40,000 nucleotides of DNA from an uncultured Conexibacteraceae bacterium (lineage in GTDB: Bacteria; Actinomycetota; Thermoleophilia; Solirubrobacterales; Solirubrobacteraceae): assembly GCA_963761675.1 (NCBI GenBank), contig CAVXIA010000001.1, positions 169,387 to 209,386 of the forward strand. The letters run 5' to 3'. The notes under the pieces are model-generated. The model had not been told where the DNA came from, made no database searches, and saw nothing but the letters and a program-made list of their open reading frames with translations. This document shows, piece by piece, positions 11,055 to 38,591 of the stretch (the stretch's first letter is position 1; the number at the start of each line of letters is the position of its first letter). Position numbers and translations under genes: made by a program.

Positions 11055-11057
11055 GAC

Positions 11058-12287: not shown

Positions 12288-12302
12288 AATGTCTCCGGAA
12301 GG

Positions 12303-12956: not shown

Positions 12957-12994
12957 GGCTGCCTCCTTAGATCCCTGTACTTCCAGTCTACCCA

Positions 12995-13384: not shown

Positions 13385-14304
13385 CCAACCCTCTGACGAC
13401 CGTCGACGAGCCGGCCGCCTGTTGTACCCCGACGGAGCAGGCCAGCTGCTGCGAACCGATTGACAAGGTCACATGCTGTGATCCGAGCCACGGCGGGGGA
13501 TGTGGCTGCGCCGCCGGCCAGACGACTGACCCGCCGGCGACCGATATTCGCGTGCAGGTCCGTGAGCGCTACGCCGCCGCCGCCCTGCAGGTCACAACTG
13601 TGAGCCCAGAGGTTGGTTGTTGCGCGCCGAGTGACACGTTTGACGGCGGCAGCGAAGTCTTCGGGGCCGCGCTGTACGCGCTCGGTGACCGGGCGCAGAT
13701 CCCAGACACCGCAGCGCTCGCCTCACTCGGCTGCGGCAACCCGACCGCCGTGGCTGAGCTTCACGAGGGCGAGACTGTCCTTGACCTGGGTTCCGGAGGC
13801 GGCATCGACGTTCTCCTCTCCGCCAAGCGCGTCGGGCCCACGGGACTCGCGTATGGCCTCGACATGACCGATGAGATGCTCGCGCTGGCCCGTGAGAATC
13901 AGGAAAAGGCTGGGGTCGAGAATGTGCAATGGCTGCGCGGCCATATCGAAGAGGTCCCGCTGCCAGACGCTTCAGTTGACGTTGTGATCTCAAACTGCGT
14001 GATCAACCTCTCGGGCGACAAGCCCCGAGTGATCGCTGAAGCAGCTCGGGTTCTCCGCCCGGGCGGCCGCTTCGCAGTCTCAGATGTCATCGCCGATGAG
14101 GATATGGACGAGGCGACCCGCGCAGACATGCAGGCCTTCACCGGCTGCATAGCCGGGGCACTCACGCGTGCCCAGTTCCAACAGATCCTCACGGACGCCG
14201 GCTTCCAGGATGTCGATATTCAGGAGACCCACCGGGTGCACCGATCAGCCGGGTCGGCGATCGTCCGCGCTCGCAGACCTGTCTCAGAATCCGTCAGCGC
14301 CTGA
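13372..14304 (+). CDS. arsM: Arsenite S-adenosylmethionine methyltransferase ArsM
   Basis: It has SAM motif I ([11 protein letters not shown]), [13 protein letters not shown] and RVLRPGGRF. The N-terminus is Cys-rich (CC..CC..CC..CGC). ATG 13372 overlaps the arsR stop by 13 nt. Confidence 0.9.
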
Positions 14305-25257: not shown

Positions 25258-25396
25258 GCTGAGCAGCTCCCTTTTTGTGATGGTCGCGTCGAGCGTAACC
25301 CGTCCGCATCGGCGGACGCGAAAACACAGCAGCGGCGGTGGTTCGCCGAGTCACGCGATTGTCCCCGCAGGAGCAAGTCGTCTTCCACCGAGGATT

Positions 25397-26236
25397 TCAG
25401 GCGTTGGGCTCGATGACGTCGGCTGCTGTTGCCGGACGTTCTGTTGACCCGGTGTTGACCTGACCGGGGTTCGAAGCAATGAGATCGTGCAAGAATGCAG
25501 CGTCGCCAATGCCCTCATCCAGTAGATGAACGTATGTCTCGAGGGTGTAGCTGGGCGTGGAGTGCCCGAGCCATTCCTGAACTTGCTTGACGTTACGGCC
25601 AGCGGCAAACAACAGACTCGCGCATGTGTGCCTGAATGTGTGAAAGCTGACCCACGGAAGACCGAGGTCTTCCACCGCTGGCTTGAGCACGCGAGACGCC
25701 AGGTTCGCACGGCTAATCTCGGTCCCGGTTCTAGTGCAAAACACAGGTCCAGAGCCGAGGCCGGAGGTCCGCGGTCCTCGCAGCTGGATGGCCATCCCCG
25801 GCGCGAGCGGGATGTCACGTCGTGAGTGCCGGGACTTCAAGATCTGCCGGCGGCCTTCGTACATCTGCTCGCGCACGCGGACTCGCGGCTTGGGGCCAAG
25901 TTCAACATGCTCCCAGCGCAGACCGATCGCCTCAGAGATCCGCAGCCCGGTATGAGCGAGGAACTCGAAGAACAAGCGCGACTCGTCCGGGACGGCGGCC
26001 AGTACCAGCGCGAGCTCGGCGCGAGTCAGCGCTTTCGCCTCATGCTCGTCTGCTGCCATTGACCTCATGACCGGCAACCGGAGCCCTTGGATTGGGTTCG
26101 CGCGTAGTGCCCCGTCGTCGACCGCAGTCGCGAACATCGGGCGCCAGTCGTGGTTCGCTGGCAGCGCGTTCGAGGTCGCGTGCGGCCCGGTCCTCGAGAA
26201 TGCGGGCTTGTAGGTCGCTGACCGGAATTGCGACAT
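25397..26236 (-). CDS. Tyrosine recombinase (phage-integrase family), N-terminally short or possibly truncated
   Basis: The catalytic domain is intact: HTGLRISE (Arg), FHTFRHTCAS (HxxR) and LGHSTPSYTLETYVH (His/Tyr). Only about 80 aa precede it, versus about 190 aa in the integrase at 38820..39986. The annotated start is 14 bp from the IS end. Confidence 0.8.
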   Translation of the reverse strand: MSQFRSATYKPAFSRTGPHATSNALPANHDWRPMFATAVDDGALRANPIQGLRLPVMRSMAADEHEAKALTRAELALVLAAVPDESRLFFEFLAHTGLRISEAIGLRWEHVELGPKPRVRVREQMYEGRRQILKSRHSRRDIPLAPGMAIQLRGPRTSGLGSGPVFCTRTGTEISRANLASRVLKPAVEDLGLPWVSFHTFRHTCASLLFAAGRNVKQVQEWLGHSTPSYTLETYVHLLDEGIGDAAFLHDLIASNPGQVNTGSTERPATAADVIEPNA

Positions 26237-26249
26237 CGCGTCGCTCGAC

Positions 26250-28208
26250 TAGCCCGAAGTTCCCCTTGGTGAGGCGGGAAGATCTGGCTTGTTCATTGGG
26301 GTTACGCGGGTTTCGGGGTGCGCGGGTCGTGTCTACTTGATCACGACTGGTGCTTCGGTGGCCAGTTTCAGCGCGTGTGCTTGGAGCGCGGTGGGCTGTG
26401 TCAGCTTCTCGAACGTGTCGGCATGGCCGGCCAGTCGGGTCCGGTTCCGGGTCTGGGTAGCGAGCTCGCTCAGCAGCGTGCGGTAGCTGTGGGCGGGGCC
26501 GCCGTTGGTGGTGCGTTTGGTCCGGGCTTTCTGCTCGGCTGCGGGTGAGCGGACGGCTTTGGCGACCGGATCATCGGCCTCGGGCCGGTGCTCGTCGCTG
26601 AACAGCAGGGGTTTCCATGCGGCTTTCAAATGCCAGGTGAGGTAGTAGGCCAGCATGCAGATCAGCACGTGGCATCGGACGCGGTCCTCGAGGTGGTGGT
26701 GGATCGGGCGGATCTGCAGGTCGGGGCCTTTGAGCGAGCCGAACGCTCTTTCTGCTTGTTCGAGGTTCTTGTAGGCGCGGACAACATCACCGGCCGGAAC
26801 GTCAGCTGCGGTGTGGTTGGTGCGCAGGATGTAGAACCCGTCCAGCGCCGCCTCCTCGCTGATCTCCTGCTCTTTGCGCTGGTAGGTGAAGTCCATGTCG
26901 GTGATCTGGATGTCGAAATGCTTTCTGACATGGAAGCGCTTGAGCGCGGGGCCGACCGCCATCCCGATCTGCGCGGCGCCGAGCAGAGTGCCTTTATCCA
27001 CCCGCGATTTGATCAGCTCCAGGTCGGCCTCGGTTGCGTCCAGCAGCTCGGAGCGTTTGCGGGCGCGTTGAGCGCCAACCAGCGGGTTCTTGCAGACGAT
27101 CAGGCGCTCACCGGGGAACTCGTCGATGTCGGTGAGCTCACCAAGGTTCTGCTGATCAAACAGCGATGGTTGGAAGATCCCTTCACGGACGAGCTTCTTG
27201 ATCGTCGGCGCCTTGAGCGCGGTGATCCAGGAGACCCCCTCGGTGCCCTGAAGCGTTTCGATGTTCGCGCGGGTGACCATCCCGCGGTCGGCGACGACCG
27301 TGACGGTCTGAAGGCCGAAGCGGTCCTTGATCTTGGTCACCTGCGCCGGCAGGGTCTTGTCGTCGTGGAGCTCGCCGGAGAACACCTCGATGCTGACGGG
27401 CCGGCCCTCCCGATCGCAGAGCAGCCCGTAGATGATCTGCGGCAGGTTCTTCTGACCGTCACGCGAGTAGCCCAACTTCCCAAGCGGGCAGGACCGGCCC
27501 TCGAAATACGAGGACGAGACGTCGTAGAGCACCATCTCCCCATCCCGCAGGTGACGCTTGGCGAGCCGGTCCTCGACACGGGCCTGACGGTCGATCAGCC
27601 AGTCCATCGCCCCATAGAGATCGTCCTCGTCGACCCCCTCGACACCCAGCTCCGAGGCCAGCGTCGACTGCCCCAGAGTGCGGACAGTGGACAGCTTCGA
27701 GCCCGGTGAGATCACCCGGGAGAGGATCATCGCCATGCACAGATCCCGCGGACGGGAAGGCCGGGAGTCCAGCAGCCTGGCCAGTTCCAGTCGCCGGGCC
27801 ATGACCAAAGCGGCATTCACGTGTCCCGCCGGCAGCGCCCGCTCGATCTCAAAGACCTCATCAACCGCTGTCAGTGTCTCTCCGGCCAGCACCCTGCGGA
27901 TCGCGTCGATCGCCTCCGCCGGGAGATAGGACAGGTTCGCCAGCGTCTCCTTCTTGACCTTCCCGTCCTCACGGTAGGAGCGCCGCAACAACGTCGCGGT
28001 GTACTCACGATCCCCAGACCGACGCTTTGTCGTGCTCACATGCATCGCACCCGATGCTCTCGCTGGACGGCCCATAGCTCCAGCAGATCATAACACAACC
28101 CACGATAGTCGTGGGTACATCATGCGGCAAACAAAAAGCCGGAATCCCCAGCAACCACCAGGGATCCCGACTCAATACACGCCGATTGCAAGGGGGAACT
28201 TCGGACTA
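26250..28208 (-). mobile_element. IS1634-family (IS4-related) insertion sequence, ~1.96 kb
   Basis: The terminal inverted repeats are TAGCCCGAAGTTCCCC-TTG (26250-26268) and the reverse complement of 28189-28208, TAGTCCGAAGTTCCCCCTTG. A single transposase ORF lies inside. No clear target-site duplication was seen. Confidence 0.8.
26333..28045 (-). CDS. IS1634-family DDE transposase
   Basis: The N-terminus MHVSTTKRRSGDREYTATLLRRSYREDGKVKKETLANLS is the hallmark opening of IS1634-type transposases. The protein is about 570 aa. The alternative start is at 28075. Confidence 0.9.
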   Translation of the reverse strand: MHVSTTKRRSGDREYTATLLRRSYREDGKVKKETLANLSYLPAEAIDAIRRVLAGETLTAVDEVFEIERALPAGHVNAALVMARRLELARLLDSRPSRPRDLCMAMILSRVISPGSKLSTVRTLGQSTLASELGVEGVDEDDLYGAMDWLIDRQARVEDRLAKRHLRDGEMVLYDVSSSYFEGRSCPLGKLGYSRDGQKNLPQIIYGLLCDREGRPVSIEVFSGELHDDKTLPAQVTKIKDRFGLQTVTVVADRGMVTRANIETLQGTEGVSWITALKAPTIKKLVREGIFQPSLFDQQNLGELTDIDEFPGERLIVCKNPLVGAQRARKRSELLDATEADLELIKSRVDKGTLLGAAQIGMAVGPALKRFHVRKHFDIQITDMDFTYQRKEQEISEEAALDGFYILRTNHTAADVPAGDVVRAYKNLEQAERAFGSLKGPDLQIRPIHHHLEDRVRCHVLICMLAYYLTWHLKAAWKPLLFSDEHRPEADDPVAKAVRSPAAEQKARTKRTTNGGPAHSYRTLLSELATQTRNRTRLAGHADTFEKLTQPTALQAHALKLATEAPVVIK

Positions 28209-28236: not shown

Positions 28237-28255
28237 CTGTCGCAATCCAGCAGCC
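28237..28255. repeat. Core-less or degenerate copy of the cassette-boundary site
   Basis: The sequence CTGTCGCAAT-CCAGCAGCC matches the arms of the 31288-31320 copy, but the 7-bp core is missing. Confidence 0.5.
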
Positions 28256-28270
28256 ACCTAGCTTCGTCTG

Positions 28271-28303
28271 AGAGTTACGGAATGATCGATATCCACCAGT
28301 GGC
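28271..28303. repeat. Cassette-boundary palindromic site (13-7-13), copy 1
   Basis: AGAGTTACGGAAT GATCGAT ATCCACCAGTGGC. This is the most divergent copy. It lies 19 nt downstream of the stop of ORF 28322. Confidence 0.55.
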
Positions 28304-28321
28304 CGCCGTCAACTCGGTGGC

Positions 28322-28843
28322 TCACTCGGTGTCGGGCGGGGACTGCGGACTTTCGGCTGCCCAGCGACCCAACTCCAACCGGAACCGTTCACCACTTACA
28401 GCCTCTGCGGGCCAGGTCAGTTCAACGGTAACGGCATCACTCATCAGAGGTTCTGGCAACCAGAAGCTGCCCCAAACGGTTGACGTCGATGACGACTGAC
28501 TCTGCTCGTCTCCGAATCCGAGAAGATGAATTCGCGTCAGACTGCGCTTTTGGATCGTCGCAAGCCTGGGCTGTCGCCGACCCCGACGCCGAGCCGCGTC
28601 TGCGCAGACCACGATCCTCAGCTGTCGGAACAACTGGTGAACCGGGGGGTCACGCCGTGGCTGAGGCGCCTCGATCGTCAGGTCAACCGCCAGGCCGCTA
28701 GGCCAGATCCGGAGCCTGTCCACCTGCACCACCGCTGGAGCATCGCAAACCACTTCGGCTGGGTAGACCTCTGAGTCAGGCGGCCCGTCCGGCAGCCGAA
28801 AGCGTTTACTCATCTCCACCGATGCACGGTCGTCGCCCCCCAT
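28322..28843 (-). CDS. Hypothetical protein (cassette 1)
   Basis: ORF 28322..28909. The track start (TTG 28909) lies inside the repeat site and hairpin, so ATG 28843 or ATG 28813 is more plausible. No family was recognised. Confidence 0.45.
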   Translation of the reverse strand: MGGDDRASVEMSKRFRLPDGPPDSEVYPAEVVCDAPAVVQVDRLRIWPSGLAVDLTIEAPQPRRDPPVHQLFRQLRIVVCADAARRRGRRQPRLATIQKRSLTRIHLLGFGDEQSQSSSTSTVWGSFWLPEPLMSDAVTVELTWPAEAVSGERFRLELGRWAAESPQSPPDTE

Positions 28844-28872
28844 AGGTGCAGCCCCGAGTATTCCAACTACTG

Positions 28873-28920
28873 ATTGCGGCAGCGGCTCGGCTGCCGCAAT
28901 GATCGACAAACGGAAGGCCG
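28873..28920. repeat. Cassette-boundary site, copy 2, with an extra inverted arm forming a perfect 11-bp hairpin
   Basis: The site is CGGCTGCCGCAAT GATCGAC AAACGGAAGGCCG (28888-28920). Upstream, ATTGCGGCAGC (28873-28883) pairs perfectly with GCTGCCGCAAT (28890-28900). Confidence 0.8.
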
Positions 28921-28939
28921 GTGGGGTGCGGAAACCCGC

Positions 28940-29344
28940 TTACCGGATCTGCGTGATCAGCCTCGCCCGGACGGTGTGGCCGAGGCGGAGTGTGATCGAG
29001 TGCTTGATGCGCTGGCCATCGACGGTGGCTTCGAGCAGGTAGCGACCAGGGTTGGGGGTCATCATCAGGAACGAGTCGCGTTTGTGCCCGGCAGCCGCGT
29101 ACTCGGCGATCACTTGTCGCCCGCCGGGCCTGAAGAGTCCGATCGAGACCACGGGCACGATCCTGCATCTGCCGGGTGACGGTCCTCCGCACTGCTCCGC
29201 GACAGCCTTGACCTTGGCGCACTTCGCGTTCGGCCAGCAATATGGCTGACTCGCTGGGGCGTGCGACGTGCTGGCGCATCCGGAGATCGCGGCGGACGAC
29301 AGGACGACCACCAGACCGGCCGTGATCCTTGATGTTCTGCACAT
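28940..29344 (-). CDS. Putative lipoprotein, Cys-rich N-terminal half plus beta-rich C-terminal half (cassette 2)
   Basis: It has a signal peptide with the lipobox LSSAAISGC. It resembles the protein at 35790..36236 (CGGP..G..C, PG.Y). Confidence 0.6.
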   Translation of the reverse strand: MCRTSRITAGLVVVLSSAAISGCASTSHAPASQPYCWPNAKCAKVKAVAEQCGGPSPGRCRIVPVVSIGLFRPGGRQVIAEYAAAGHKRDSFLMMTPNPGRYLLEATVDGQRIKHSITLRLGHTVRARLITQIR

Positions 29345-29388
29345 CGGGTCCGCCGATCCTACGTGCGTGGTTGGCGCCTGTCACGCGC

Positions 29389-29421
29389 TGCTTCCCGCCT
29401 TGATCGACGAGGGACAGCGGC
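29389..29421. repeat. Cassette-boundary site, copy 3
   Basis: TGCTTCCCGCCTT GATCGAC GAGGGACAGCGGC. Confidence 0.7.
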
Positions 29422-29465
29422 CGACCGGCAAACACACCGACAGGCTTGCGCTTGTGCAGTACGGC

Positions 29466-30134
29466 TTACGTGTCTGACTCCTTGGGTTCCTGAGTCTCAG
29501 CGTCCGTGGGTGTTCGTTGCTCCTGGTTCTCCTTGGCTACAGCGAGCAGGTCAGACAGTCCGAACTCGTCCCGTCCGTCCGCCAGCGCCCGCCCGCCTGC
29601 GGCCATCAGCAACCTGCGCAACTCCGGGTCCGCGCTGACGACAAGCCGGACATCTTCGGCTCTCGGCCTCGCGGTGGCGCTGCTGTGCGGTTGGTTATCT
29701 GGGCCAGGCAACATGCCGATGACCGTGGTGCGGATCTTCTCGGAATCAATGTCGAAGTCGAGCAGGATGCGGGACGCCACACCCTCGTTCTCACGCACCA
29801 GACCGAGTAGGAGGTGCTCGGTACCGACGTAGTTATGGCCAAGGGCCAACGCCTCACGGAGTGCTAGTTCCAGAATCTTCTTCGCGCGGGGAGTAAAGGG
29901 AATCTCGCCAGAAGTGACTTCCTCTCCGGAGCCAACGATCCGGACCAACTGCTCCAGGGCACCCTCAAACGAAACCCCCAGCGACTCGAGCGCCCGCGCC
30001 GCAAGGCCTTCTCGTTCGCGGAGCAGCCCGAGGAGGATGTGCTCGGTGCCGATGTAGTTGTGCTTGAGCTCTCTGGCCTCCTGCTGTGCAAGAACCACGA
30101 CGTCCCTGGCACGCTCTGTGAATCGCTCGAACAC
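29466..30134 (-). CDS. Stand-alone Clp N-terminal (Clp_R repeat) domain protein, no AAA+ module (cassette 3)
   Basis: MFERFTERARDVVVLAQQEARELKHNYIGTEHILLGLL and a second repeat, HNYVGTEHLLLGLV, match the ClpC/ClpB N-domain. An unrelated ~80-aa tail follows. Confidence 0.85.
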   Translation of the reverse strand: MFERFTERARDVVVLAQQEARELKHNYIGTEHILLGLLREREGLAARALESLGVSFEGALEQLVRIVGSGEEVTSGEIPFTPRAKKILELALREALALGHNYVGTEHLLLGLVRENEGVASRILLDFDIDSEKIRTTVIGMLPGPDNQPHSSATARPRAEDVRLVVSADPELRRLLMAAGGRALADGRDEFGLSDLLAVAKENQEQRTPTDAETQEPKESDT

Positions 30135-30190
30135 GAGTCACAGCATCCCACCGACCGCAAGGGCCAGCCAAGCTCCCGTCAGTCCACCGC

Positions 30191-30223
30191 AGACGGCCGC
30201 TTGGATCGATATGCGGCAGCGGT
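30191..30223. repeat. Cassette-boundary site, copy 4
   Basis: AGACGGCCGCTTG GATCGAT ATGCGGCAGCGGT. Confidence 0.75.
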
Positions 30224-30379
30224 CTATCCAGGCTGAGCATGCACGTGCGGTGGGCCGGTGACCGCGTCGTCGCCGCAGGGACCGTTCTGTCGGAGGCATG
30301 CAGATCGCGAAAGCAGTCGTTCGCGTGGTGCGCGGTTGCACGCAAAGCGCAAGCGAGATCGCGTGCCACGTGGCCTCGG

Positions 30380-31291
30380 TCAGCCTTGCTTGCAGTTGGC
30401 GAGTGCGGATGCGTAGAACCGCAAGTAGCTCCCCCAGTGCGCGTTCCAGTACGCGTAATCGTGCCCGCCCGGCCAGACGTGCATGTGGATCCCGAGGTGG
30501 GCCGCGAGTGTCTCGTCGGCGACGTGGAACGGGTCCTGGTCGCCACCGTCGAGCCACAGGTGCGCGCGCCCGTAGACGTGCGGATCGGCGGCCGTGATCG
30601 CGAGCAGATTGTTGCGCGCGAAGTCCGTCTCGTCATCGAACGCGCCGGCTGCGGTGTCTGCGCCACTGGGCCAGAGCGCAGCGGAGTCCCCGCCGATCGC
30701 GCAGAACCGTCCCGGGTCAAGCCGCGCGATGTCATACGCGCCGAACCCACCCATCGAGATCCCGCCGATCGCTAGCCGTGCCGGATCGGCGTGCAGCCGT
30801 CTCAGGGAGATCGGGATGACCTCGCGTAGTACGTACTCGGCCCACGCTCCGCCCGCGCGGTCATGCCAATAGGAATGATCCCCGCCGTACGGAAAGGCGA
30901 CGTCTGGGGCGCGCGCCCCAAGCGCGTCGAGCGCTGCGAAGAACTGATCGGACAGCTCTGAATTCTGGTCGCCGCCCCGGCCATGCAGAAAGATCAACAG
31001 CGGCCGCCCGCTCCCACCCCCCGGTGGGCTGACCAACGTGATCGGCTCGCGCGCGTGAACAAACCTGCTGTTGATCGTCACGTGAACGATCCGCGTCACG
31101 TGAACGATCCGGGCACCACCAGTCCTCGGCGACCTGATCGACCCAACCACCACGGTCGCCAGGACCGCCACAATCACGACAGTCGCGACGGCGAGCATGC
31201 GGCAACGACGAACGGCCCGCTCCCTGCCAGATTGTGCCCTGTCCACCCTGCGCAACCGTACAGCCCCAGGCAGCCAATGCGCCCGAACCAC
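30380..31291 (-). CDS. Alpha/beta-hydrolase, putative esterase family, membrane-anchored or secreted (cassette 4)
   Basis: It has LIFLHGRGGD, the nucleophile elbow GGISMGG and an N-terminal hydrophobic anchor. An alternative start is ATG 31198. An 18-bp internal tandem duplication lies at 31077-31112. Confidence 0.75.
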   Translation of the reverse strand: MVRAHWLPGAVRLRRVDRAQSGRERAVRRCRMLAVATVVIVAVLATVVVGSIRSPRTGGARIVHVTRIVHVTINSRFVHAREPITLVSPPGGGSGRPLLIFLHGRGGDQNSELSDQFFAALDALGARAPDVAFPYGGDHSYWHDRAGGAWAEYVLREVIPISLRRLHADPARLAIGGISMGGFGAYDIARLDPGRFCAIGGDSAALWPSGADTAAGAFDDETDFARNNLLAITAADPHVYGRAHLWLDGGDQDPFHVADETLAAHLGIHMHVWPGGHDYAYWNAHWGSYLRFYASALANCKQG

Positions 31292-31320
31292 TGTCGCAAT
31301 GATCGAGCAGCAGCAGCCGG
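31288..31320. repeat. Cassette-boundary site, copy 5
   Basis: CCACTGTCGCAAT GATCGAG CAGCAGCAGCCGG. Confidence 0.75.
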
Positions 31321-31339
31321 GATGGACCGCGAGTCGCGG

Positions 31340-31933
31340 TCAGCGTGACCGCACCCTGAGTCGCAACGGAGTCGGCAGCCAACCCCCAGCAGACCTTGTG
31401 ACACCTACCGTGAGCTTGGAGCCTGGTCGTGGACTCTGGGCCGTGATCACGTAGTTCGCGTACAGGTTTGCTCGGTTACCGTCGCGCAGGGCAGGGATGC
31501 TTGCCGCCCACAACAGGTCGTGAACGTGGATCCATTTGATCGCGGCAGATAAGGGCTTTCCCGAAAAGGATGGAACGCGGTACGGGCCCGGCAGAGGCAC
31601 GGGATGCCCGGGGCTTGCCGCTCCGCATGTTGGAATCTTTGCCGACAAAATGACCGTGAAGCCAGGCGGGACGCTTCGACTCGGAGCAGGCGTCGATGAT
31701 GTGACAACCGGGATGCACGCGCCTGACCAATCGACCGAGAACGCGTTCGTGAACGTAACCCTGAACCCGTCGCGGTGCAGCTCGATATAGGCCGCGAGCA
31801 GATTCCTCCCGCTCACGGTCGGGATAGCACGAGCGCTCACCGGATGCGCGGGAGGTCCCGCCGCGCGTGCCAACGATGCGGAACTGATCAGCGCAGCCAG
31901 CGCGGTGAGTAAGAAGAGCTTGGATCGGATCAC
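31340..31933 (-). CDS. Secreted hypothetical protein (cassette 5)
   Basis: It has a clear signal peptide, MIRSKLFLLTALAALISSASLARA. The C-terminal YVITAQSPRPGSKLTVG is PASTA-like, but the assignment is weak. Confidence 0.55.
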   Translation of the reverse strand: MIRSKLFLLTALAALISSASLARAAGPPAHPVSARAIPTVSGRNLLAAYIELHRDGFRVTFTNAFSVDWSGACIPVVTSSTPAPSRSVPPGFTVILSAKIPTCGAASPGHPVPLPGPYRVPSFSGKPLSAAIKWIHVHDLLWAASIPALRDGNRANLYANYVITAQSPRPGSKLTVGVTRSAGGWLPTPLRLRVRSR

Positions 31934-32000
31934 GTCAACTCGTCCACAACACTACGCACGATTCGTAAGCTCATCACAACAGTTTGTAGCCTGGATGTTC

Positions 32001-32037
32001 CGGCTGCCGCAATGTTTCGAGATCCCAGCAGTCTGGT
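32001..32037. repeat. Cassette-boundary site, copy 6 (altered core)
   Basis: CGGCTGCCGCAAT GTTTCGAGATC CCAGCAGTCTGGT. The left arm is perfect and the core is rearranged. Confidence 0.6.
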
Positions 32038-32133
32038 CAATGCTGGATACAGCCCGATCCGTTCGCGAAGCGGCATGCAGTCGTCAGCGTTTGACCACCC
32101 TTGGGCGCATCGACCTCGGCCTGAGCTGCGTGA

Positions 32134-33009
32134 CTATTTCAAAGATGCGGGGCGCCGCATGTCGAACACACCGCATGCGGTCTTGTGGCTGTAGCAGCGA
32201 ACGTTAGGCAGCGCCGACGTTATCGTGCGCGTACGGGTCGTGACTCGCACCGAGGTTGGTCTCGCGGCGAGCCGTTCCTTTAGCAGCTGTCCTCTGGCGG
32301 CTGCGGTCAAAGGCGCGCCCACGATGCGAACGGCCTTCTGGGGCCATAGCGCGACGTACCAGCCGTCGTGGACGACGGCCTGGATTGCCGGGCGGTTCCG
32401 GAAGATGAATTCGACGGCTGTGACATCGCTCCCGGCCTTTCCGTAGTCATAGGCCACCATGCCGAGCTGGTCTTGGCCTGGCCGGTCTCCGAATCCTCCA
32501 AGGCCTGCATCGGTGAGTTGGTCGGGACCGGGAGCGACCAACCGGCGATCGAAAGCCCCGCCATTGGATTGGTATGGGTTGGAGGGGGTACCGGTCATGC
32601 AGAGGAGTGCCGAGCCGCGCGCGTTCGAAACGAGGGCGACAATCCCGCCGTTCTCAGCGCTCACCTTCGGCCCGGTAGCGAACGGACGCTCTATCCCGTT
32701 CCATGCCTGCCTCCGAACGTCGCATCGTCGGACTGCACTCGCGACCACACGCGGGTTCGGTGCGTTCAGAGCCTGGTGAGCGACAGGAGCTCCCGCCCCA
32801 CCCAGATCAAGACCGCCGCCAGCTCCCGCTGCGGAGCCACCGCCGCCGCTGAAGCCGATGATCAAACCGGCTGCAACAAGCACCGCAACGGCCAGCGCCG
32901 CAATGACGCCGCGATGTCGGCGCTGTCGCCTGCGGGCATCCTCGATCACGCCCGCCTTGACATCATCCGGCAGCCGCGGCGATGTGGGTTGAGGGCTCTG
33001 CACAACCAT
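32134..33009 (-). CDS. Single-pass membrane protein, hypothetical (cassette 6, divergent from GntR)
   Basis: 291 aa. A cytoplasmic basic N-terminus precedes a TM segment (VIAALAVAVLVAAGLIIGF), a Gly-rich linker and an extracytoplasmic domain. Confidence 0.5.
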   Translation of the reverse strand: MVVQSPQPTSPRLPDDVKAGVIEDARRRQRRHRGVIAALAVAVLVAAGLIIGFSGGGGSAAGAGGGLDLGGAGAPVAHQALNAPNPRVVASAVRRCDVRRQAWNGIERPFATGPKVSAENGGIVALVSNARGSALLCMTGTPSNPYQSNGGAFDRRLVAPGPDQLTDAGLGGFGDRPGQDQLGMVAYDYGKAGSDVTAVEFIFRNRPAIQAVVHDGWYVALWPQKAVRIVGAPLTAAARGQLLKERLAARPTSVRVTTRTRTITSALPNVRCYSHKTACGVFDMRRPASLK

Positions 33010-33035
33010 CTCAATGTGCTAGGGTAACTGGCACA

Positions 33036-33380
33036 TTGCTGGCTGTCAACATCGACCGCGACGACCCAGCCCACCTGCACGAGCAGGTCGCCACAGAAAT
33101 CCGTCGCGCCATCGCCGACGGCGAAGCGAAACCCGGCGACCGCTTGCCACCCGCCCGGCACCTCGCAGCAGTGATGGGCGTCAACTCCAACACCGTCCTG
33201 CGTGCACTGCGTGCGCTCCGCGACGAAGGATTGATCGAGATGGCCCCGCGACGGGGCATCAAGGTCGTAGGGACCCCGGCCCAGAGTGAGGTGCTGGACA
33301 AGGTCGCCGAACTCGTCCAGATGGCCCGAGCCCGCGGGTACACACGCGCCGACCTATTGCGGATGATCACCAACGCTTGA
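33036..33380 (+). CDS. GntR-family transcriptional regulator (short, YtrA-like)
   Basis: It has the GntR HTH signature PGDRLPPARHLAAVMGVNSNTVLRALRALRDEGLI. A TTG 33036 start avoids overlap with the divergent gene; the track start is 32982. Confidence 0.8.
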   Translation: MLAVNIDRDDPAHLHEQVATEIRRAIADGEAKPGDRLPPARHLAAVMGVNSNTVLRALRALRDEGLIEMAPRRGIKVVGTPAQSEVLDKVAELVQMARARGYTRADLLRMITNA

Positions 33381-33424
33381 TCCGCTCAGGAGATGCCGCG
33401 AGCACAGCAGTCACCCCAAGACAC

Positions 33425-33457
33425 AGCGTGCCGCAATGATCGACATTTGGCAGCGGA
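33425..33457. repeat. Cassette-boundary site, copy 7 (closest to consensus)
   Basis: AGCGTGCCGCAAT GATCGAC ATTTGGCAGCGGA. Confidence 0.8.
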
Positions 33458-33495
33458 GGTCGGACGAGCGTCTCACGCGTGACCGTCCCCGTAAC

Positions 33496-33999
33496 GTGTG
33501 TGACGTGCTGAGCGCGCGAACGGCGGTCGAAGGTGATCAAGCCCAGGCTCTGAGGGTCTGGCGCTCGGCGAATGCTGCCCGCGGCCTTGTGGCAGAGCCT
33601 GGGCGGGTTGCACGCGTGGAGGAGAAGCTCAGTGACACATCAGCTCTTCTCGTGGTCATCGCCGATGACACGCGAGTGGTGGGCATGTCGCTGGCGGAGG
33701 CGTTTAGGGAGCAAGACGGCGCCGGGCCGATCGTTGCTGGTGCTGGGCACATCTCGATGGTGTTCGTCGACCCGGACCGATGGGGTAAAGGGATCGGCGG
33801 TCGTCTACTCCGTGCGCTGCATATCGAGATGCGCGCCGCGACTTGGGAAGAGGCCTCGTTGTGGACTCGCGTCAGCAATGAGCGTGCCCACAGCCTGTAC
33901 TCGCGGAGTGGCTACGTGCGGACTGGCGACGTCAAGCACCTGCCGGGCGGCGATGAAATCGTGCGATACGAAGCGCACCTGACGCCGCTGTCGCCCTGA
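33496..33999 (+). CDS. GNAT-family N-acetyltransferase (cassette 7)
   Basis: It has GNAT motif A, MVFVDPDRWGKGIGGRLLRAL, and motif B, AHSLYSRSGY. The track start ATG 33436 lies inside the repeat site, so GTG 33496 is preferred. The stop overlaps copy 8. Confidence 0.8.
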   Translation: MCDVLSARTAVEGDQAQALRVWRSANAARGLVAEPGRVARVEEKLSDTSALLVVIADDTRVVGMSLAEAFREQDGAGPIVAGAGHISMVFVDPDRWGKGIGGRLLRALHIEMRAATWEEASLWTRVSNERAHSLYSRSGYVRTGDVKHLPGGDEIVRYEAHLTPLSP

Positions 34000-34017
34000 T
34001 CGACTACCGGCACTCCG
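33985..34017. repeat. Cassette-boundary site, copy 8
   Basis: CCGCTGTCGCCCT GATCGAC TACCGGCACTCCG. Confidence 0.75.
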
Positions 34018-34085
34018 GTCAGTGCTGATGTATCCCAAGGGAGAAGGGAGAGGCCCAGCCGCCCCGGATGCGGCCTGACGGCGGG

Positions 34086-35039
34086 TTAGCGCTGCTTTGC
34101 CGAGCCCTCGGGTCTGCTGGGCGCGGTGAGCGCAACGGACAGCATGTGGGCGGCCTCTTGCCAGGGGGACACGCCGGGCTCACCGCCGTGCTGGTATCGG
34201 CGGTGAATGAACTGGATGCCGGCGACAGTGACCCACCAGCGAAGCTCATCGCGTGTCGGCTGCCACTGGCCCTTGAGCTGGTCAAGGTAGCCTCGAGTGA
34301 CAGCCTCCGCGTGTTCTTCTCGGTCGTGTGCAACGTACCCGGATGGTCCCGCGCCGAGGAGGGCGATGAAGATCGCCCGTGCGAGGTCAAGCCCGATAGG
34401 GGCGACGTGCGCGTCTTCCCAGTCGATCAGCACCCCGGTGTTGGCGCCGTCGTCGAGATAGTTTCCCGGGCCCGGGTCGCCGTGCGTGAACACCAGCGTG
34501 CTGCTGCAACGAGGCACCCGCCAGGAGCTCAGTTGCTCCCAATCTTCAACGGTGGCTCTGATCTCACTGAGAGCCTCATCGAGCTCGTTGATTCGCCGCC
34601 TGTGGGCGTGTCCGAACTCAAACGCGTCAAGAACAGCAAGCCCGCTGCCGTCCCAATCGATCCGTGTCAGTCCCGCGATCGCGCGTCCCATCCGAACCCA
34701 AGCCTGTGCGGTTATCGGCGTGTTCCCAGGCGCGCGGTCGGTCACCAGGCAGTACACACGCTCAGTGTTGTACCGCGCGCCTGTGGCGCCGAGGAGACGA
34801 GGTGACGGACCGTGCTGCGCAGTGAGCCAGCTCAGCGCCTGCTTCTCGCAGGCAAGCGACCCGGAGATCCTTTCGAGCTTCACCGCGACCTCCTCGCCGG
34901 TGGCCTCGACCACGCCGAACAGAACCTCGTGACGCGTTCCCTGCACCGGACGTCCCGTTACCCGGATCAGCCGCCCATCATCCAGTTCGATCCGGGCCCC
35001 CTTGGTCACAGATGACATGCTCGCAAGCCGGACAGCCAC
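34086..35039 (-). CDS. Phosphotransferase-family kinase (APH/choline-kinase fold) (cassette 8)
   Basis: It has the catalytic loop FTHGDPGPGN and the metal-binding LIDWEDA, with an N-terminal VAVKL lysine motif. Confidence 0.8.
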   Translation of the reverse strand: MAVRLASMSSVTKGARIELDDGRLIRVTGRPVQGTRHEVLFGVVEATGEEVAVKLERISGSLACEKQALSWLTAQHGPSPRLLGATGARYNTERVYCLVTDRAPGNTPITAQAWVRMGRAIAGLTRIDWDGSGLAVLDAFEFGHAHRRRINELDEALSEIRATVEDWEQLSSWRVPRCSSTLVFTHGDPGPGNYLDDGANTGVLIDWEDAHVAPIGLDLARAIFIALLGAGPSGYVAHDREEHAEAVTRGYLDQLKGQWQPTRDELRWWVTVAGIQFIHRRYQHGGEPGVSPWQEAAHMLSVALTAPSRPEGSAKQR

Positions 35040-35045
35040 CGCGTA

Positions 35046-35078
35046 CCGCTGCCGGATCGATCGAGCTCCGGCAGCGCA
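35046..35078. repeat. Cassette-boundary site, copy 9 (most symmetrical)
   Basis: CCGCTGCCGGATC GATCGAG CTCCGGCAGCGCA. The arms GCTGCCGGA and TCCGGCAGC are perfectly complementary. Confidence 0.85.
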
Positions 35079-35085
35079 GCGTTGC

Positions 35086-35493
35086 TCAGGGGAGGATCTT
35101 GAAGGCAGCCGTGTGGCGGGCGCGCACGATGCTGAAGTGGCGGTGGTCGATGGTCGCGATCTCGGTGACGTTGAGCCGTTCGGCGGCTGCGATTACGGAT
35201 GCATCGACGGTGCCGAGTGGAAGGTCGTGGTATTGGGCGACGAGTTCGGCGATGCGGAGCAGGTCAATGGCGTGCACGGGTTCCAGCGTGAAGTCGCCGG
35301 AGGCGAGATCACCGAGGAGTCGTACTTCCGGGCGCCATCCAAGCCGGGTCGAGACCAGGTAGGAAACCTCAGTCAGAACGAGCGTGGGGATGATCAGCGG
35401 GCCGGGATGTGTTTCGAGTAGCTCGAGGCTGGCGGCGTGGTGGGCGTCATCACCATCGACATACGCGTAGAGCGGGCCGGCGTCGATGATCAG
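35086..35493 (-). CDS. vapC: Type II toxin VapC (PIN-domain RNase)
   Basis: The ORF track shows only the C-terminal 63 aa. Manual translation upstream gives (L)IIDAGPLYAYVDGDDAHH...IIPTLVLTEVSYL...VDASVIAAAERLNVTEIATIDHRHF, which includes the PIN acidic residues. No ATG/GTG/TTG is available. A CTG at 35493 overlaps the vapB TGA (CTGA). Confidence 0.8.
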   Translation of the reverse strand: MIIDAGPLYAYVDGDDAHHAASLELLETHPGPLIIPTLVLTEVSYLVSTRLGWRPEVRLLGDLASGDFTLEPVHAIDLLRIAELVAQYHDLPLGTVDASVIAAAERLNVTEIATIDHRHFSIVRARHTAAFKILP

Positions 35494-35732
35494 CGCGATG
35501 ATTCAACCTCGGCGCGGATGATCTCCTCGATCCGCTCAGAGATATCGCTGTGACCGCTATGTCCGGCCGCCGCGGCCCCAAGCTGGCGGCGCCGGCCTGC
35601 ACCGAGGTGTTCCTCAAGCGCCGTGCGCGTGACCTCGGCGATCGTGCTGCCGCGTCGGTTTGCTTCATGGCGAAGCCTCGCGTCCAGATCGTCTGGGAGC
35701 TTCACGGTCGTTCGTCGCACGTATGCCAGCAT
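35490..35732 (-). CDS. vapB: Type II antitoxin VapB (ribbon-helix-helix, CopG-like)
   Basis: 80 aa. TTVKLPDDLDARLRHEANRRGSTIAEVTRTALEEHL is a typical RHH motif. It lies directly upstream of and overlaps vapC. Confidence 0.8.
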   Translation of the reverse strand: MLAYVRRTTVKLPDDLDARLRHEANRRGSTIAEVTRTALEEHLGAGRRRQLGAAAAGHSGHSDISERIEEIIRAEVESSR

Positions 35733-35746
35733 ATCGCGTCGGACCC

Positions 35747-35779
35747 GCGCTGCCGCAAGGATCGAACCAGGCGTCGTGT
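35747..35779. repeat. Cassette-boundary site, copy 10
   Basis: GCGCTGCCGCAAG GATCGAA CCAGGCGTCGTGT. Confidence 0.7.
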
Positions 35780-35789
35780 GAGGGTTGGA

Positions 35790-36236
35790 TTAGCCCGCGT
35801 ACGCTTTGAATAGAAGCCTGGTAGTGCGATCGCCTTGCACCCTCACGCGACGCCGATCGGTGGCTGTCGCTGCTCGGTGCCTTGACGTCCAGAGCAGCAC
35901 GACCTCGTACTCGCCGGGCTTGACGTGCATTGCGAATCGTCCGTGCCGGATCCGGGCCCGAGCGATCAGCGTTCCTTGCGGTTTCTCTATGCCGGCCTCG
36001 TCAAGCGTGCTGCAGACGTTGTCGGTGCAGCCGGACCATCTGCCGGTGACTACGTGACAGGAGCCGCGCTGGCCGACCGGTCCACCGCAGAGCACGACTT
36101 CTCCTTGAACTATCCCGGCCGCTCGCTGCTGCGATCCGCGTGTTGTTGCCGACGAACGCGTTTGTGCAGCTGCCGACGCCGCCAGAGAAGCCAACGCGGC
36201 TACGGCAAAGACCATGACTAGCGAGCGATTACGCAT
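35790..36236 (-). CDS. Secreted Cys-containing protein, paralog-like to 28940..29344 (cassette 10)
   Basis: It has the signal peptide MRNRSLVMVFAVAALASLAASAAAQ. The shared pattern is LCGGPVGQRGSC ... GRFAMHVKPGEYEVVL. Confidence 0.55.
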   Translation of the reverse strand: MRNRSLVMVFAVAALASLAASAAAQTRSSATTRGSQQRAAGIVQGEVVLCGGPVGQRGSCHVVTGRWSGCTDNVCSTLDEAGIEKPQGTLIARARIRHGRFAMHVKPGEYEVVLLWTSRHRAATATDRRRVRVQGDRTTRLLFKAYAG

Positions 36237-36290
36237 GCTCTCAACCTACGCCGCTTAGCCAACTTCGTCACGCGTATCCCTGGTTCCTGA

Positions 36291-36323
36291 GCGCTCCCGG
36301 CTTGATCGACAAGAAGCAGGCCA
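36291..36323. repeat. Cassette-boundary site, copy 11 (last; 12 nt from the relaxase stop)
   Basis: GCGCTCCCGGCTT GATCGAC AAGAAGCAGGCCA. Confidence 0.7.
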
Positions 36324-36334
36324 TGGCCGAGGTT

Positions 36335-37324
36335 TCAGCGGTCGATGCCGCTCTCGCGTGCTGGGGATGCCGTGTGGGGCTCTGCGGCTGCGGCACCGTG
36401 CTGAAGGTCGAGGTCCTTCTCCCACTGTGGTCGGGGGTCATATTCGGCTGCCAACGGTGGGCGGGCCGGGGCAGCGGCAGCGTTGCTTCTGATGGTGGCC
36501 AGTAGGTGGCTCTCTTTCCAGCCGACCTCGGTGCCCCTGAGCCAGACGTCAGGTCGGTCGAGTTCAGCGAAGCTGATGCCACGTCGTCCTTGCCGGTGTT
36601 CGGTTTGTCGCCAGAGAACGCCTCGTGCTTTGAGTTCTGTTGGGAGCTGGTCAACGCTGATCACGGTGCTCGCCGCCGCACCGATCTTGTTGTGCAACCG
36701 CTTGTAGCGGCCGGTCAGCGGCCGCGACTTGATCCCTCGGGCACGCTCGGCCTTTGGTAGGTGCCGTTGCTGGCCCTGCAGCTCGGTGAGACCGAGGTCG
36801 GCTGTGATCCGCGCACAGGCAGCCTGGGCACGGCTGTAATCACGATGGGTGGATGCGAGCTTGCCGTCCGGTTTGACGATGTTGACGACGAGGTGCAGGT
36901 GCGGGTTGCTGTATCTCCGGTCATGCCGGATCGCTGCCCACTCGCAACGATCGAGTTCCATCTGCTGTACGAACCTGTGCGCAAGTTCCGCGGCCATCAA
37001 GTCATTGACCGGCTCGTCTGTTGGCAGGCCCAACGAGCAGTGCCACACGTGACCGTCACGGGTACCGACCCGGTTCCCGGCCCTGTCCTTTACGGGTATC
37101 GGTGCCTTGCGGCCTGACTCTCGGTGTGGCGCGTCCAGCAGTGCCGAGAACTCCCGTCGCGGGCCCGGGGTCTGGATCGACGTGACCTTGTAGCCGGTAC
37201 GGAGCTGCACGCTCGCCGATCCAGTGATGATCCGCGCCCGGACATGCTCGTTGTGGTTGCCTTTGCCGCCCAAATACCCGACCAGGCCGGCCATGTTCCC
37301 GCCGCGAGTGATGTTCGGGATCAA
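36335..37324 (-). CDS. MobA/VirD2-family relaxase
   Basis: It has the N-terminus (M)IPNITRGGNMAGLVGYL and the His-triad region AAIRHDRRYSNPHLHLVVN. The TTG start overlaps the mobC stop (TTGA). Confidence 0.9.
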   Translation of the reverse strand: MIPNITRGGNMAGLVGYLGGKGNHNEHVRARIITGSASVQLRTGYKVTSIQTPGPRREFSALLDAPHRESGRKAPIPVKDRAGNRVGTRDGHVWHCSLGLPTDEPVNDLMAAELAHRFVQQMELDRCEWAAIRHDRRYSNPHLHLVVNIVKPDGKLASTHRDYSRAQAACARITADLGLTELQGQQRHLPKAERARGIKSRPLTGRYKRLHNKIGAAASTVISVDQLPTELKARGVLWRQTEHRQGRRGISFAELDRPDVWLRGTEVGWKESHLLATIRSNAAAAPARPPLAAEYDPRPQWEKDLDLQHGAAAAEPHTASPARESGIDR

Positions 37325-37725
37325 CGCCTGCGCCTCCCCAGACCCGCCGCAGCATCCTGGACTGCTTGATGCGCGAGCGCCAAGCCACGCAGCAACTCAC
37401 GTCCCTGTTTGGCGAGCGCGTCAAGGTCACCGTTCTGTGAGTTGTGCGCGACGCGCACGAGCTGGTTTACGTTGTTCCCGATCCTCGCCAGCTCACGACG
37501 CGCCTCGACCAACTCGGCCGCGGCAGCACTGTCAACCGCGCCGCTGGAATCTCCCGGGTTCTGCAACACGGCGTCAACCATCATGCGTTGGATCGAGACA
37601 CCACTCTCCGCAGCCCGCTTGCGTAGCTCGAGCAGCTCGTCATCAGAGACCCGCAAATCAACCCGACGGTTACGCGGCACCGCGGCGCGAGGCCGGCGCC
37701 GGCCCGAGCGAACAGGCCCCGTCAT
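37321..37725 (-). CDS. mobC: MobC-family relaxosome accessory protein
   Basis: RVSDDELLELRKRAAESGVSIQRMM ... ELARIGNNVNQLVRVAH is the characteristic MobC pattern. Confidence 0.85.
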   Translation of the reverse strand: MTGPVRSGRRRPRAAVPRNRRVDLRVSDDELLELRKRAAESGVSIQRMMVDAVLQNPGDSSGAVDSAAAAELVEARRELARIGNNVNQLVRVAHNSQNGDLDALAKQGRELLRGLALAHQAVQDAAAGLGRRRR

Positions 37726-37764
37726 ACGTGACCGCCAGGGTGTGGGTTCCGCGAAGCGGCGAGC

Positions 37765-37805
37765 GGTAATGCCAGGCAGAGGCGCAGCCGAATCCTGGCA
37801 TTACC
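37765..37805. other. Candidate oriT: perfect 12-bp inverted repeat
   Basis: GGTAATGCCAGG (37765-37776), a 17-nt spacer, then CCTGGCATTACC (37794-37805). It lies in the 120-bp gap immediately upstream of mobC. Confidence 0.4.
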
Positions 37806-37846
37806 TTTAGCTCGCTCCACCCCAAGCGCACACATCACTCAGACGC

Positions 37847-38581
37847 TCAACCGACAGTCCACTCAGCCCGCTCACCCGGATCCTCAGCCAGATGGTCGGC
37901 GACCATGAGCAGCTCATCGCCGACGTCACGAAACGCCTGCGCGACAGCCAGGATGTCAGCCCCCTCCCCCGCCGCCACGAGCGCCTCGAACGCCATGTCG
38001 AACCGGTCCCACAAACCCTCACGCGCAGGACGGTTTCCACCCGGCCGGAGCTCATACGGCAAACGATCAGGCCGCCACCCAGCCCCGCCCGCCCAGCCCG
38101 TGTTGGTCGTGCGACCCGCATGAAACACAGTCGAGGCGACATGCTCAAACCCGCCGGCGATCGCACGCAACCGCTCCACATAACCCGTGCTCGGCGGCGC
38201 CAATGAACTGACCCTGATCCCCGCAGAGAGACTTCCGCTCGCATGGTCAACCAGCTCCTTCACGCTCTCATGCGTCCCGGCCGGCGTCGGTAACCCTTGT
38301 AGCGTCAGCTCGTCCCTGACGGGCACATCCGGCTCATCGCCTGAGGAGACCGACGGCTCAGGGCCTGGAACCTTCCTCTCAGGAGCAGGGTTGACCGCGG
38401 CGAGCATCCGCTCCACCTCAGACCGGCGAACAATCAACTTGCGCATACCCGCCCGCGATGCCTGCAACTGCCCCTTGCTCACCCACAACCTGACCGTCGC
38501 CGGGTTCACCCGCAACTCCTCGGCGATCTCCGCCAACGTCATGAACGGATCATCCTGCGATCCAAAGCTTTCGGTGCTCAT
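37847..38581 (-). CDS. Excisionase/MerR-type HTH domain protein with an uncharacterised C-terminal domain
   Basis: The N-terminal MTLAEIAEELRVNPATVRLWVSKGQL is an excisionase-family HTH. The remaining ~190 aa are unassigned. Alternative starts are 38590 (GTG) and 38542 (ATG). Confidence 0.7.
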   Translation of the reverse strand: MSTESFGSQDDPFMTLAEIAEELRVNPATVRLWVSKGQLQASRAGMRKLIVRRSEVERMLAAVNPAPERKVPGPEPSVSSGDEPDVPVRDELTLQGLPTPAGTHESVKELVDHASGSLSAGIRVSSLAPPSTGYVERLRAIAGGFEHVASTVFHAGRTTNTGWAGGAGWRPDRLPYELRPGGNRPAREGLWDRFDMAFEALVAAGEGADILAVAQAFRDVGDELLMVADHLAEDPGERAEWTVG

Positions 38582-38591
38582 ACAAGCCACC

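Follow-up and report, generated by a model that had tools for sequence, protein, structure and literature searches.

A probable array of mobile gene cassettes bounded by a short GATCGA-centred palindromic site in a genomic island of an uncultured Solirubrobacteraceae bacterium

At simple tyrosine-recombinase sites, such as those of Cre/loxP and Xer/dif, insertion is conservative and duplicates only an asymmetric core lying between symmetric arms. Such sites, among them loxP (Cre; 13-8-13), FRT (Flp) and the difH and difSL sites of XerH and XerS, combine dyad-symmetric arms with a short asymmetric overlap that sets directionality within about 34 bp, exchange without gain or loss of bases and give excision, integration and inversion; the known ones are single-purpose, serving plasmid or chromosome resolution, and are not dispersed cassette boundaries. 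Integrons, the textbook means by which genes are stored and shuffled, hold arrays of mostly single-gene units bounded by imperfect palindromic sites, move them as discrete cassettes by crossover at a fixed point of the site, carry a cargo rich in toxin–antitoxin pairs, acetyltransferases, immunity proteins and genes of unknown function, and, sedentary chromosomal integrons included, differ in array content between close relatives. Surveys have found no complete integron in Actinobacteria, and integrons are reported to be absent from other Gram-positive phyla too (PMC4889954). A further system is that of the dif modules of Acinetobacter plasmids, small accessory-gene modules, often toxin–antitoxin pairs, that are bounded by sites of about 28–34 bp with a 6-bp spacer, encode no recombinase, exchange between sites with identical spacers and become fused where sites decay (PMC13141974). 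Here we describe a stretch of 40,000 nt (the window) from an uncultured Conexibacteraceae bacterium of the family Solirubrobacteraceae (contig CAVXIA010000001.1, positions 169,387 to 209,386), in which a model-made initial annotation had pointed out an integron-like array of genes separated by a repeated palindrome; its statements that integrons are absent from Actinobacteria and that dif modules are known from Acinetobacter plasmids agree with the two sources just cited. We propose that positions 28.28–36.31 kb comprise about ten mobile cassettes within a mobilizable island, exchanged through circles by conservative site-specific recombination with an enzyme encoded elsewhere, and we give this reading a probability of roughly 0.78. 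The array is neither an integron nor, by definition, a dif-module array, and works like both. What looks new is a cassette system built on an unrelated site in a phylum reported to be without integrons, and a literature search returned nothing similar for Actinomycetota or Thermoleophilia.

The site itself is a confirmed feature of the window. Its ten copies (Table 1) all read GATCGAN on the + strand, at the positions and in the direct-repeat orientation first annotated, and a repeat finder grouped the same core positions independently (families D1 and D2). The 33-nt consensus originally proposed, with a 13-7-13 arrangement, proved to be idealised, having zero matches at up to three mismatches; a geometry of about 14-6-14 fits better and is described by (GAGA/GCG)CTGCCG-N4-GATCGA-N4-CGGCAG(TCTC/CGC), in which the hexamers CTGCCG and CGGCAG lie 4 nt from the core and the N4 is variable. 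Only the six bases GATCGA are invariant in the window, the seventh being C in five copies, T in two, G in two and A in one. A matrix built from the ten sites gives them scores of 19.8–36.9, against 14.1 for the best other position on either strand of the 40 kb, a test that is circular in that the matrix is applied to its own sites. An external matrix of 23 sites, all from other genomes, recovers nine of the ten (23.1–34.0) and misses the copy at 35760, and in Markov-1 random windows it finds 0.1 matches scoring at least 15 per window, with a maximum of 17. Matrix matches are confined to 28.2–36.3 kb, in line with the reported lack of the motif from 1–25 kb. Similarly, left-arm decamers resembling CTGCCGCAAT with at most one mismatch occur in the window only between 28237 and 35750, and several copies have weak right arms. 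Two aberrant copies were correctly recognised at the outset, that at 32001–32037 being a decayed site with the core GTTTCGA and that at 28237–28255 a left arm fused to a right arm. Across 42 non-redundant, matrix-selected sites the consensus is cagaCTGCCGcatt GATCGA cgacCGGCAGccgg, with the inverted hexamers CTGCCG and CGGCAG, outer arm extensions that are frequently GAGA...TCTC or GCG...CGC, and a variable inner N4; 41 of these sites contain GATCGA and the remaining one GACGGA, a conservation that is not independent evidence, since the selecting matrix was seeded with GATCGA sites.

The mobility of the units is indicated by comparison with contigs from Solirubrobacteraceae relatives and metagenomes (L-numbers hereafter). 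In the island on L123, which has six sites, at gene boundaries, positions 16838–16323 match window positions 28901–29407 at 92% identity; both segments measure 501 bp from core to core, the homology starts and ends at the GATCGA cores, and the flanks are unrelated. The same unit, cassette 2, recurs with other neighbours at 90–93% identity in L123, L125–L128 and L130, of which L125–L128 and L130 were located through homologues of the 134-amino-acid (aa) protein that it encodes. Within this group, L123 and L127 show an empty junction at which a PhD cassette abuts the 134-aa cassette (...gccgcatc GATCGA cgaccggaagg...), whereas L125, L126 and L130 show it occupied (...gccgcatc GATCGA aagggagg, then the 776-bp PIN/antitoxin cassette, then cccctct GATCGA cgaccggaagg...), the difference being the cassette and one additional GATCGA. 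In L123 and L127 the PIN cassette lies elsewhere, between Imm27 and 192-aa genes, and the DNA around the junction is 98–99.9% identical, so that the move would be recent. The nucleotide preceding the core agrees with the left flank and base 7 with the right flank, which places the exchange inside the six bases, and in L125, L126 and L130 one right-hand unit has three different left arms, each joined to it exactly at GATCGA. Over eight array loci, 41 of 65 distinct internal homology breakpoints lie no more than 22 nt from a core, where 1.9% would be expected, although the 65 are not independent, the loci being related. Furthermore, two short-read Logan contigs of other runs, L001 (equivalent to window positions 31301–34026) and L128, begin or end at sites, which suggests that assembly graphs branch there and that populations hold alternative neighbours.

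As read from these alignments, the 6 bp contain the crossover, arms move along with their cassettes, and near-identical genomes differ in the presence, absence or location of cassettes. Precise gain, loss and reshuffling with breakpoints at the core is what the initial annotation had suggested looking for in relatives, and its central interpretation, in which site-specific recombination shuffles cassettes bounded by a lox/dif-style site, is in essence supported. Mechanistically, the site of about 34 bp would consist of two inverted arms around a fully asymmetric 6-bp overlap, GATCGA. Recombination between a pair of direct sites would release a circle bearing a composite site (the downstream left arm, GATCGA and the upstream right arm), and the circle could re-insert at any resident site, duplicating only GATCGA and leaving hybrid sites behind. 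With the crossover in the centre, each cassette would be framed by two half-sites, one right and one left; the sites of an array would then be hybrids, which would explain the poor match between the arms of individual sites. We infer both the circular intermediate and an enzyme that would be a tyrosine recombinase, a single species acting on symmetric arms and encoded elsewhere in the genome, a class that the invariant 6-bp overlap fits. The strict conservation of GATCGA likewise fits a need for overlap identity among sites that exchange together. The circle model further implies that the cognate half-sites of one cassette should pair above random, and in 32 cassettes their complementarity does exceed that of random pairs (p=0.012, permutation test on duplex energies), with a modest effect.

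Several observations, however, weigh against this reading. The inner 4 nt of cognate half-sites show no covariation, and the arms of the same site also pair slightly above random (p=0.02), which keeps the support from half-site complementarity modest. No circular junction or excision product was observed. Head-to-head (inverted) sites occur in L123, L125, L126, L127 and L130, and sit awkwardly with an overlap, GATCGA, that is fully asymmetric. Pfam census and tblastn panels found no recombinase that consistently adjoins the arrays, with Phage_integrase in 3 of 130 open reading frames (ORFs) near sites, and in the L123 island no recombinase gene was called besides the tRNA-Lys integrase. Moreover, the comparative evidence comes mostly from one closely related group of contigs and from few samples.

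The distribution of the site bears on whether a recombinase needs to be invoked at all. In Solirubrobacteraceae sequence, sites scoring at least 18 number 0 in 57.5 kb of core DNA and 16 in 40.3 kb of island DNA, a contrast that, although the sample is small, argues against a repetitive extragenic palindromic (REP)-like element spread through the genome; the similar density in core DNA that the initial annotation would have taken as a sign of such an element is not seen within the 57 kb sampled. We therefore judge it very improbable that the sites are REP-like or terminator-like palindromes around which homologous or microhomology exchange rearranged the genes with no dedicated recombinase. 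Such an account would accommodate imperfect palindromes that lie between genes, the failure to find a linked recombinase, and the isolated single copies that stand beside housekeeping genes in many metagenome contigs. It fits poorly with sites that lack the T-run of an intrinsic terminator, in an array where neither promoter-like nor terminator-like sites are enriched, and in a window that gave no match in an Rfam search. Nor does it explain why exchange is limited to 6 bp of identity while the adjoining arms differ, six base pairs being too short for RecA-type exchange, or why loop sequence and orientation are conserved across sites, which a stem-only element would not need.

Cassette insertion could also be described, formally, as a 6-bp duplication of GATCGA around an element with inverted ends, and insertion sequence (IS) families (IS1634, IS110, Mutator) are found in or near arrays. 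A non-autonomous transposon, either a miniature inverted-repeat transposable element or a mobile insertion cassette, with terminal inverted repeats, GATCGA as its target, a 6-bp duplication and a DDE transposase acting in trans would produce this picture, and is nevertheless the account to which we attach the lowest probability of all. The insertions examined all fall in pre-existing full sites and never in the other GATCGA hexamers of the window (about 58 in total, both strands); the tips of the units (N4) are variable and the conserved hexamer is subterminal, unlike the ends of DDE transposons; and half-sites are present at the array termini on the backbone side.

Beyond the relatives compared above, a scan of a genome collection with CTGYCGCAATGATCGA returned mostly chance singletons across all phyla, and 8 of its 119 matches were Solirubrobacterales metagenome-assembled genomes with further degenerate copies. 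In metagenome contigs, CTGCCG-N4-GATCGA-N4-CGGCAG revealed independent arrays of 3–7 sites among the matches listed (L171, L137, L138, L177, L197 and L225); viral contigs gave no arrays and three isolated matches. Inverted-site pairs bound segments in L123 (13136/14205), L125 (8222/9938), L126 (985/4141) and L130 (1406/3111). IS110-family (DEDD) transposases lie in or next to the arrays of L063 (3233–4645), L124 (19300–20517), L125 (6943–7986) and L126 (1892–2845). These elements might target cassette sites, much as IS1111-attC elements target integron attC sites.

Measured against the described systems, the array shares with integrons the features listed at the outset, its units appearing to move as discrete cassettes. 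It is not an integron, because it has no IntI, no attC and no integrase–attI–Pc platform. The two integrases of the window score 53.9 and 70.9 bits against the NCBIfam integron-integrase model TIGR02249, for which the cutoff is 265; no such platform was identified next to the array, 2.5 kb of mobilization genes lying between integrase and array; and the cassette genes are in mixed orientation. Whereas attC sites vary in length, contain R''/L''-L'/R' boxes and cross over near one end, the present sites are fixed-length 14-6-14 palindromes centred on GATCGA, and the GTTRRRY ends expected of attC were not found at them, as had been stated for RYYYAAC/GTTRRRY ends from the start. The crossover is central in a short symmetric site, and a cassette accordingly has two half-sites in place of one attC. 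A folded single-strand, attC-like substrate was also considered and rejected, there being no inner-spacer covariation and only weak complementarity of the outer arms. In geometry, the site is rather of the simple tyrosine-recombinase core type, as originally claimed, with inverted arms, an asymmetric overlap within the usual 6–8 bp and conservative exchange, and it departs from the known examples in bounding dispersed cassettes and in the 4 nt beside the overlap, which are unconstrained.

The likeness to dif modules extends to every trait named above, including exchange between identical spacers, which here takes place inside GATCGA, and module fusion, which the decayed site at 32001–37 parallels. 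Should the array be an actinobacterial counterpart of the Acinetobacter modules, its sites would mimic the host dif and its units would be moved by XerC/XerD. A 6-bp centre between arms of about 11 bp is Xer geometry (PMC13141974), the left arm CTGCCGCAAT is loosely like the XerC half of a suggested Frankia dif, CACGCCGATAA (PMC3025954), no cis-encoded recombinase was found, and toxin–antitoxin pairs and small accessory genes are the cargo of dif modules too (PMC13141974). We nonetheless regard this account as improbable, since in pdif sites the XerC and XerD halves are distinct and the spacers variable, with C/D orientation necessarily alternating (PMC13141974), and the modules reside on Rep_3 plasmids. 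The present arms, by contrast, are symmetric (CTGCCG/CGGCAG) and include nothing like the Frankia dif XerD half TTATGTCAAGT, the spacer does not vary, and direct orientation holds for every site of the window and for runs of sites in related arrays as well; the array, moreover, lies in a genomic island (at chromosomal tRNA-Lys in relatives) of a member of the Thermoleophilia. Symmetric arms, an invariant spacer and direct sites place it outside the definition of a dif module, although Xer proteins may be involved. The loci examined contained no dif-like sequence, the Solirubrobacterales dif itself was not identified, and the supplements of PMC3025954 hold no dif entry for the host lineage.

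A separate question is which enzyme would act on the sites under the cassette reading. The two flanking tyrosine recombinases pointed out by the initial annotation are poor candidates: the gene at 25397–26236 is without the N-terminal domain, and relatives of that at 38820–39986 use the 43-bp 3' end of tRNA-Lys. Our tentative preference, held at less than even odds, is for a dedicated small Xer-like tyrosine recombinase belonging to a 234-aa family that has its own site in L206 and L251. In L206 this recombinase (2970–3674) consists of a catalytic domain only, with a perfect site about 190 nt upstream and an inverted site about 150 nt downstream. The family (P0126–P0245) is very abundant in Solirubrobacteraceae metagenomes and has a strongly conserved 5' leader, with a cassette site or site-like palindrome about 170–200 nt upstream of the gene; in L251–255 the site occupies the same position as in L206 and homology to L206 begins at the core, and in L256–260 site-like palindromes with other centres take that position. 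These arrangements are suggestive only of a role as the enzyme of the system, and the gene could instead be mere cassette cargo. Some other enzyme, for example a serine recombinase, is unlikely, host XerC/D is rather less likely than that, and the island integrase appears the least likely of the four. A further observation is that, some 2 kb away from a cassette site, L025 has a run of three tyrosine-recombinase ORFs (1860–5020) that looks like a recombinase-in-trio element.

The proposal that the island integrase (the 38820–39986 family) itself builds the array, by tandem accretion of small elements or with a second specificity comparable to IntI's use of both attI and attC, deserves separate mention. 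This integrase is present in the island that holds the window array and in the tRNA-Lys islands of L123, L127, L062 and L124 in which arrays or single sites lie; a fragment of a relative adjoins seven sites in L171; and in the L123 island it is the sole intact recombinase. Its attachment site, however, is the 43-bp tRNA-Lys 3' end, which is unlike the cassette site; the sister island L121 has the same integrase family and zero sites; the family was not found in the examined sequence of the arrays L125, L126 and L130; and there is no fixed junction between integrase and first site. With an integron-integrase score of 70.9 against the cutoff of 265 in addition, we consider the proposal decidedly improbable.

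The layout of the array under the cassette reading, together with its surroundings, is given in Table 1.

Table 1. Features of the cassette array and adjoining island in window coordinates (external score, score with the matrix of 23 sites from other genomes).
Feature	Position	Strand	Remarks
Tyrosine recombinase remnant	25397..26236	-	279 aa, without N-terminal core-binding domain; 5' end overlaps half-site-like sequence
IS1634-family insertion sequence	26250..28208	-	Transposase 26333-28075; 16-bp terminal inverted repeats; outside cassette system
Core-less remnant	28237..28255	+	CTGTCGCAAT (left arm) abuts CCAGCAGCC (right arm); L260 has comparable core-less palindromes
Site 1	28270..28304	+	Core 28284-28289, GATCGAT; left arm GAGAGTTACGGAAT is the backbone side; external score 24.0
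Cassette 1	28290..28900	+	617 bp core to core; small ORFs 28299-28499 and 28526-28774; no Pfam match
Site 2	28887..28921	+	Core 28901; external score 32.4
Cassette 2	28907..29401	-	134-aa protein (28940-29344), signal/lipobox-like N-terminus
Site 3	29388..29422	+	Core 29402; external score 23.4; L123 homology stops here
Cassette 3	29408..30203	-	Clp_N double-domain protein (29466-30134), Pfam
Site 4	30190..30224	+	Core 30204, GATCGAT; external score 25.5
Cassette 4	30210..31300	-	Esterase / alpha-beta hydrolase (30380-31291), Pfam
Site 5	31287..31321	+	Core 31301; external score 34.0; Logan contig L001 starts exactly here
Fused double unit	31307..33437	mixed	PASTA-domain protein (31340-31933, -); decayed site 32001-32037
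Fused double unit, rest	31307..33437	mixed	271/291-aa protein (32134-33009, -); divergent GntR (32982-33380, +)
Site 6	33424..33458	+	Core 33438; external score 30.0; holds ATG of GNAT gene
GNAT acetyltransferase cassette	33436..33999	+	Start and stop codons (ATG, TGA) inside sites 6 and 7
Site 7	33984..34018	+	Core 33998; external score 27.2
APH-family phosphotransferase cassette	34004..35058	-	ORF 34086-35039, Pfam
Site 8	35045..35079	+	Core 35059; exact CTGCCG-N4-GATCGA-N4-CGGCAG; external score 23.1
VapBC cassette	35065..35759	-	VapB (RHH, 35490-35732), VapC (PIN, 35086-35502)
Site 9	35746..35780	+	Core 35760, GATCGAA; good left arm, degenerate right arm; ten-site matrix score 19.8
148-aa protein cassette	35766..36303	-	ORF 35790-36236, signal-peptide-like N-terminus
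Site 10, last	36290..36324	+	Core 36304; right arm is island backbone and adjoins relaxase stop codon; external score 23.5
MobA/VirD2-type relaxase	36335-37324	-	Island backbone (36335..38590)
NikA/MobC-like protein	37321-37725	-	Island backbone
HTH_17/excisionase-like protein	37847-38590	-	Island backbone
Island integrase	38820..39986	-	388 aa; homologues at 76-90% identity directly beside tRNA-Lys(CTT) in relatives

The cargo named in the initial annotation was borne out by Pfam for Clp_N, esterase, PASTA, GntR, GNAT, APH and PIN/RHH, several other array ORFs having no family match, and a distant Clp_N cassette in L171 also lies between sites. The co-oriented, promoterless cassettes of integrons were not seen: genes are on both strands, with a bias relative to the site (about 7 antisense, 2 sense, 1 mixed), and at least cassette 2 contains a promoter-like element. 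Immediately upstream of site 2 stands an additional perfect hairpin, ATTGCGGCAGC...GCTGCCGCAAT. In the VapBC cassette, the VapC (PIN) frame at 35086–35502 offers none of the starts ATG, GTG or TTG downstream of the preceding stop codon, and its first codons, ATC ATC GCG CTG, overlap the vapB stop.

Judged by sequence, the array sits in a mobilizable genomic island whose equivalents in relatives are integrated at tRNA-Lys. The 388-aa integrase has thousands of homologues at 76–90% identity, the named ones being from Solirubrobacteraceae and the others metagenomic. In four contigs its gene comes immediately after tRNA-Lys(CTT), with a conserved hemB...cytochrome b...TatA-TatC block upstream of both, and in L121/L122 and L123 the island closes with the tRNA 3' end, repeated directly over 43 bp; for L062 a comparable repeat is indicated only by a BLAST match to L121 and L123. 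This position beside tRNA-Lys and the 43-bp repeat suggest that the right end of the window is the edge of an integrative mobilizable island. No tRNA-Lys 3' repeat was found inside the window, and the tRNA would lie just beyond base 40000. In L121, L123 and L124 a conserved direct repeat, atgtccccaatatgtccc, occurs about 50–70 nt upstream of the integrase start, between tRNA-Lys and the gene, possibly as an operator or an arm-type binding site. Two other origins for the sites were tried and set aside: a relaxase acting on oriT-like repeats, the L123 island having an array and no relaxase, and the terminator after tRNA-Lys in L123 as primary site, which has GTCGATC but whose loop differs in L121 and L124. 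A plasmid database search found nothing related.

On the left, the IS1634 element stands between the cut-down integrase and the first cassette site. At the 5' end of that integrase (26212–26238), a minus-strand left-arm-like sequence, TGTCGCAAT, is followed by a right-arm-like one, CCGGTCAGCG, with no core. Aberrant recombination may have caused the truncation; a mere split of the gene by the IS was rejected, since in-silico removal of the IS gave back no N-terminus. A left-end tRNA was also discarded, the 100-nt 'tRNA-Asn' called by ARAGORN at 25391–25490, overlapping the 3' end of the same gene, being unconfirmed by Rfam and probably either a false positive or a tRNA-like att remnant. Further out, the genes of 1–25 kb are of housekeeping and arsenic type, none of them being recognised as a recombinase. 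An accessory cluster for arsenic resistance is suggested by a block of lower GC (0.62–0.67) at 7121–14304, with genes for an ArsA ATPase, an ArsC-type low-molecular-weight phosphatase, a SAM methyltransferase, a MIP channel and a pyridine-nucleotide disulphide oxidoreductase.

Taken further, and tentatively, Solirubrobacterales may possess a third, hitherto undescribed kind of cassette system that is independent of integrons and Xer/dif, with two-half-site cassettes moved in trans by a small catalytic-domain-only tyrosine recombinase and exchanged among tRNA-Lys islands across soil populations; we hold this broader view with rather less than even confidence. A compact 34-bp site with a strict asymmetric overlap could, given its enzyme, become a recombination tool for high-GC organisms, and CTGCCG-N4-GATCGA-N4-CGGCAG offers a simple signature for mining cassettes in metagenomes. 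If the view is true, cassette-based genome plasticity would have evolved more than once, by way of an unrelated site, and the turnover of the accessory genome in an abundant and little-studied soil lineage would be partly explained.

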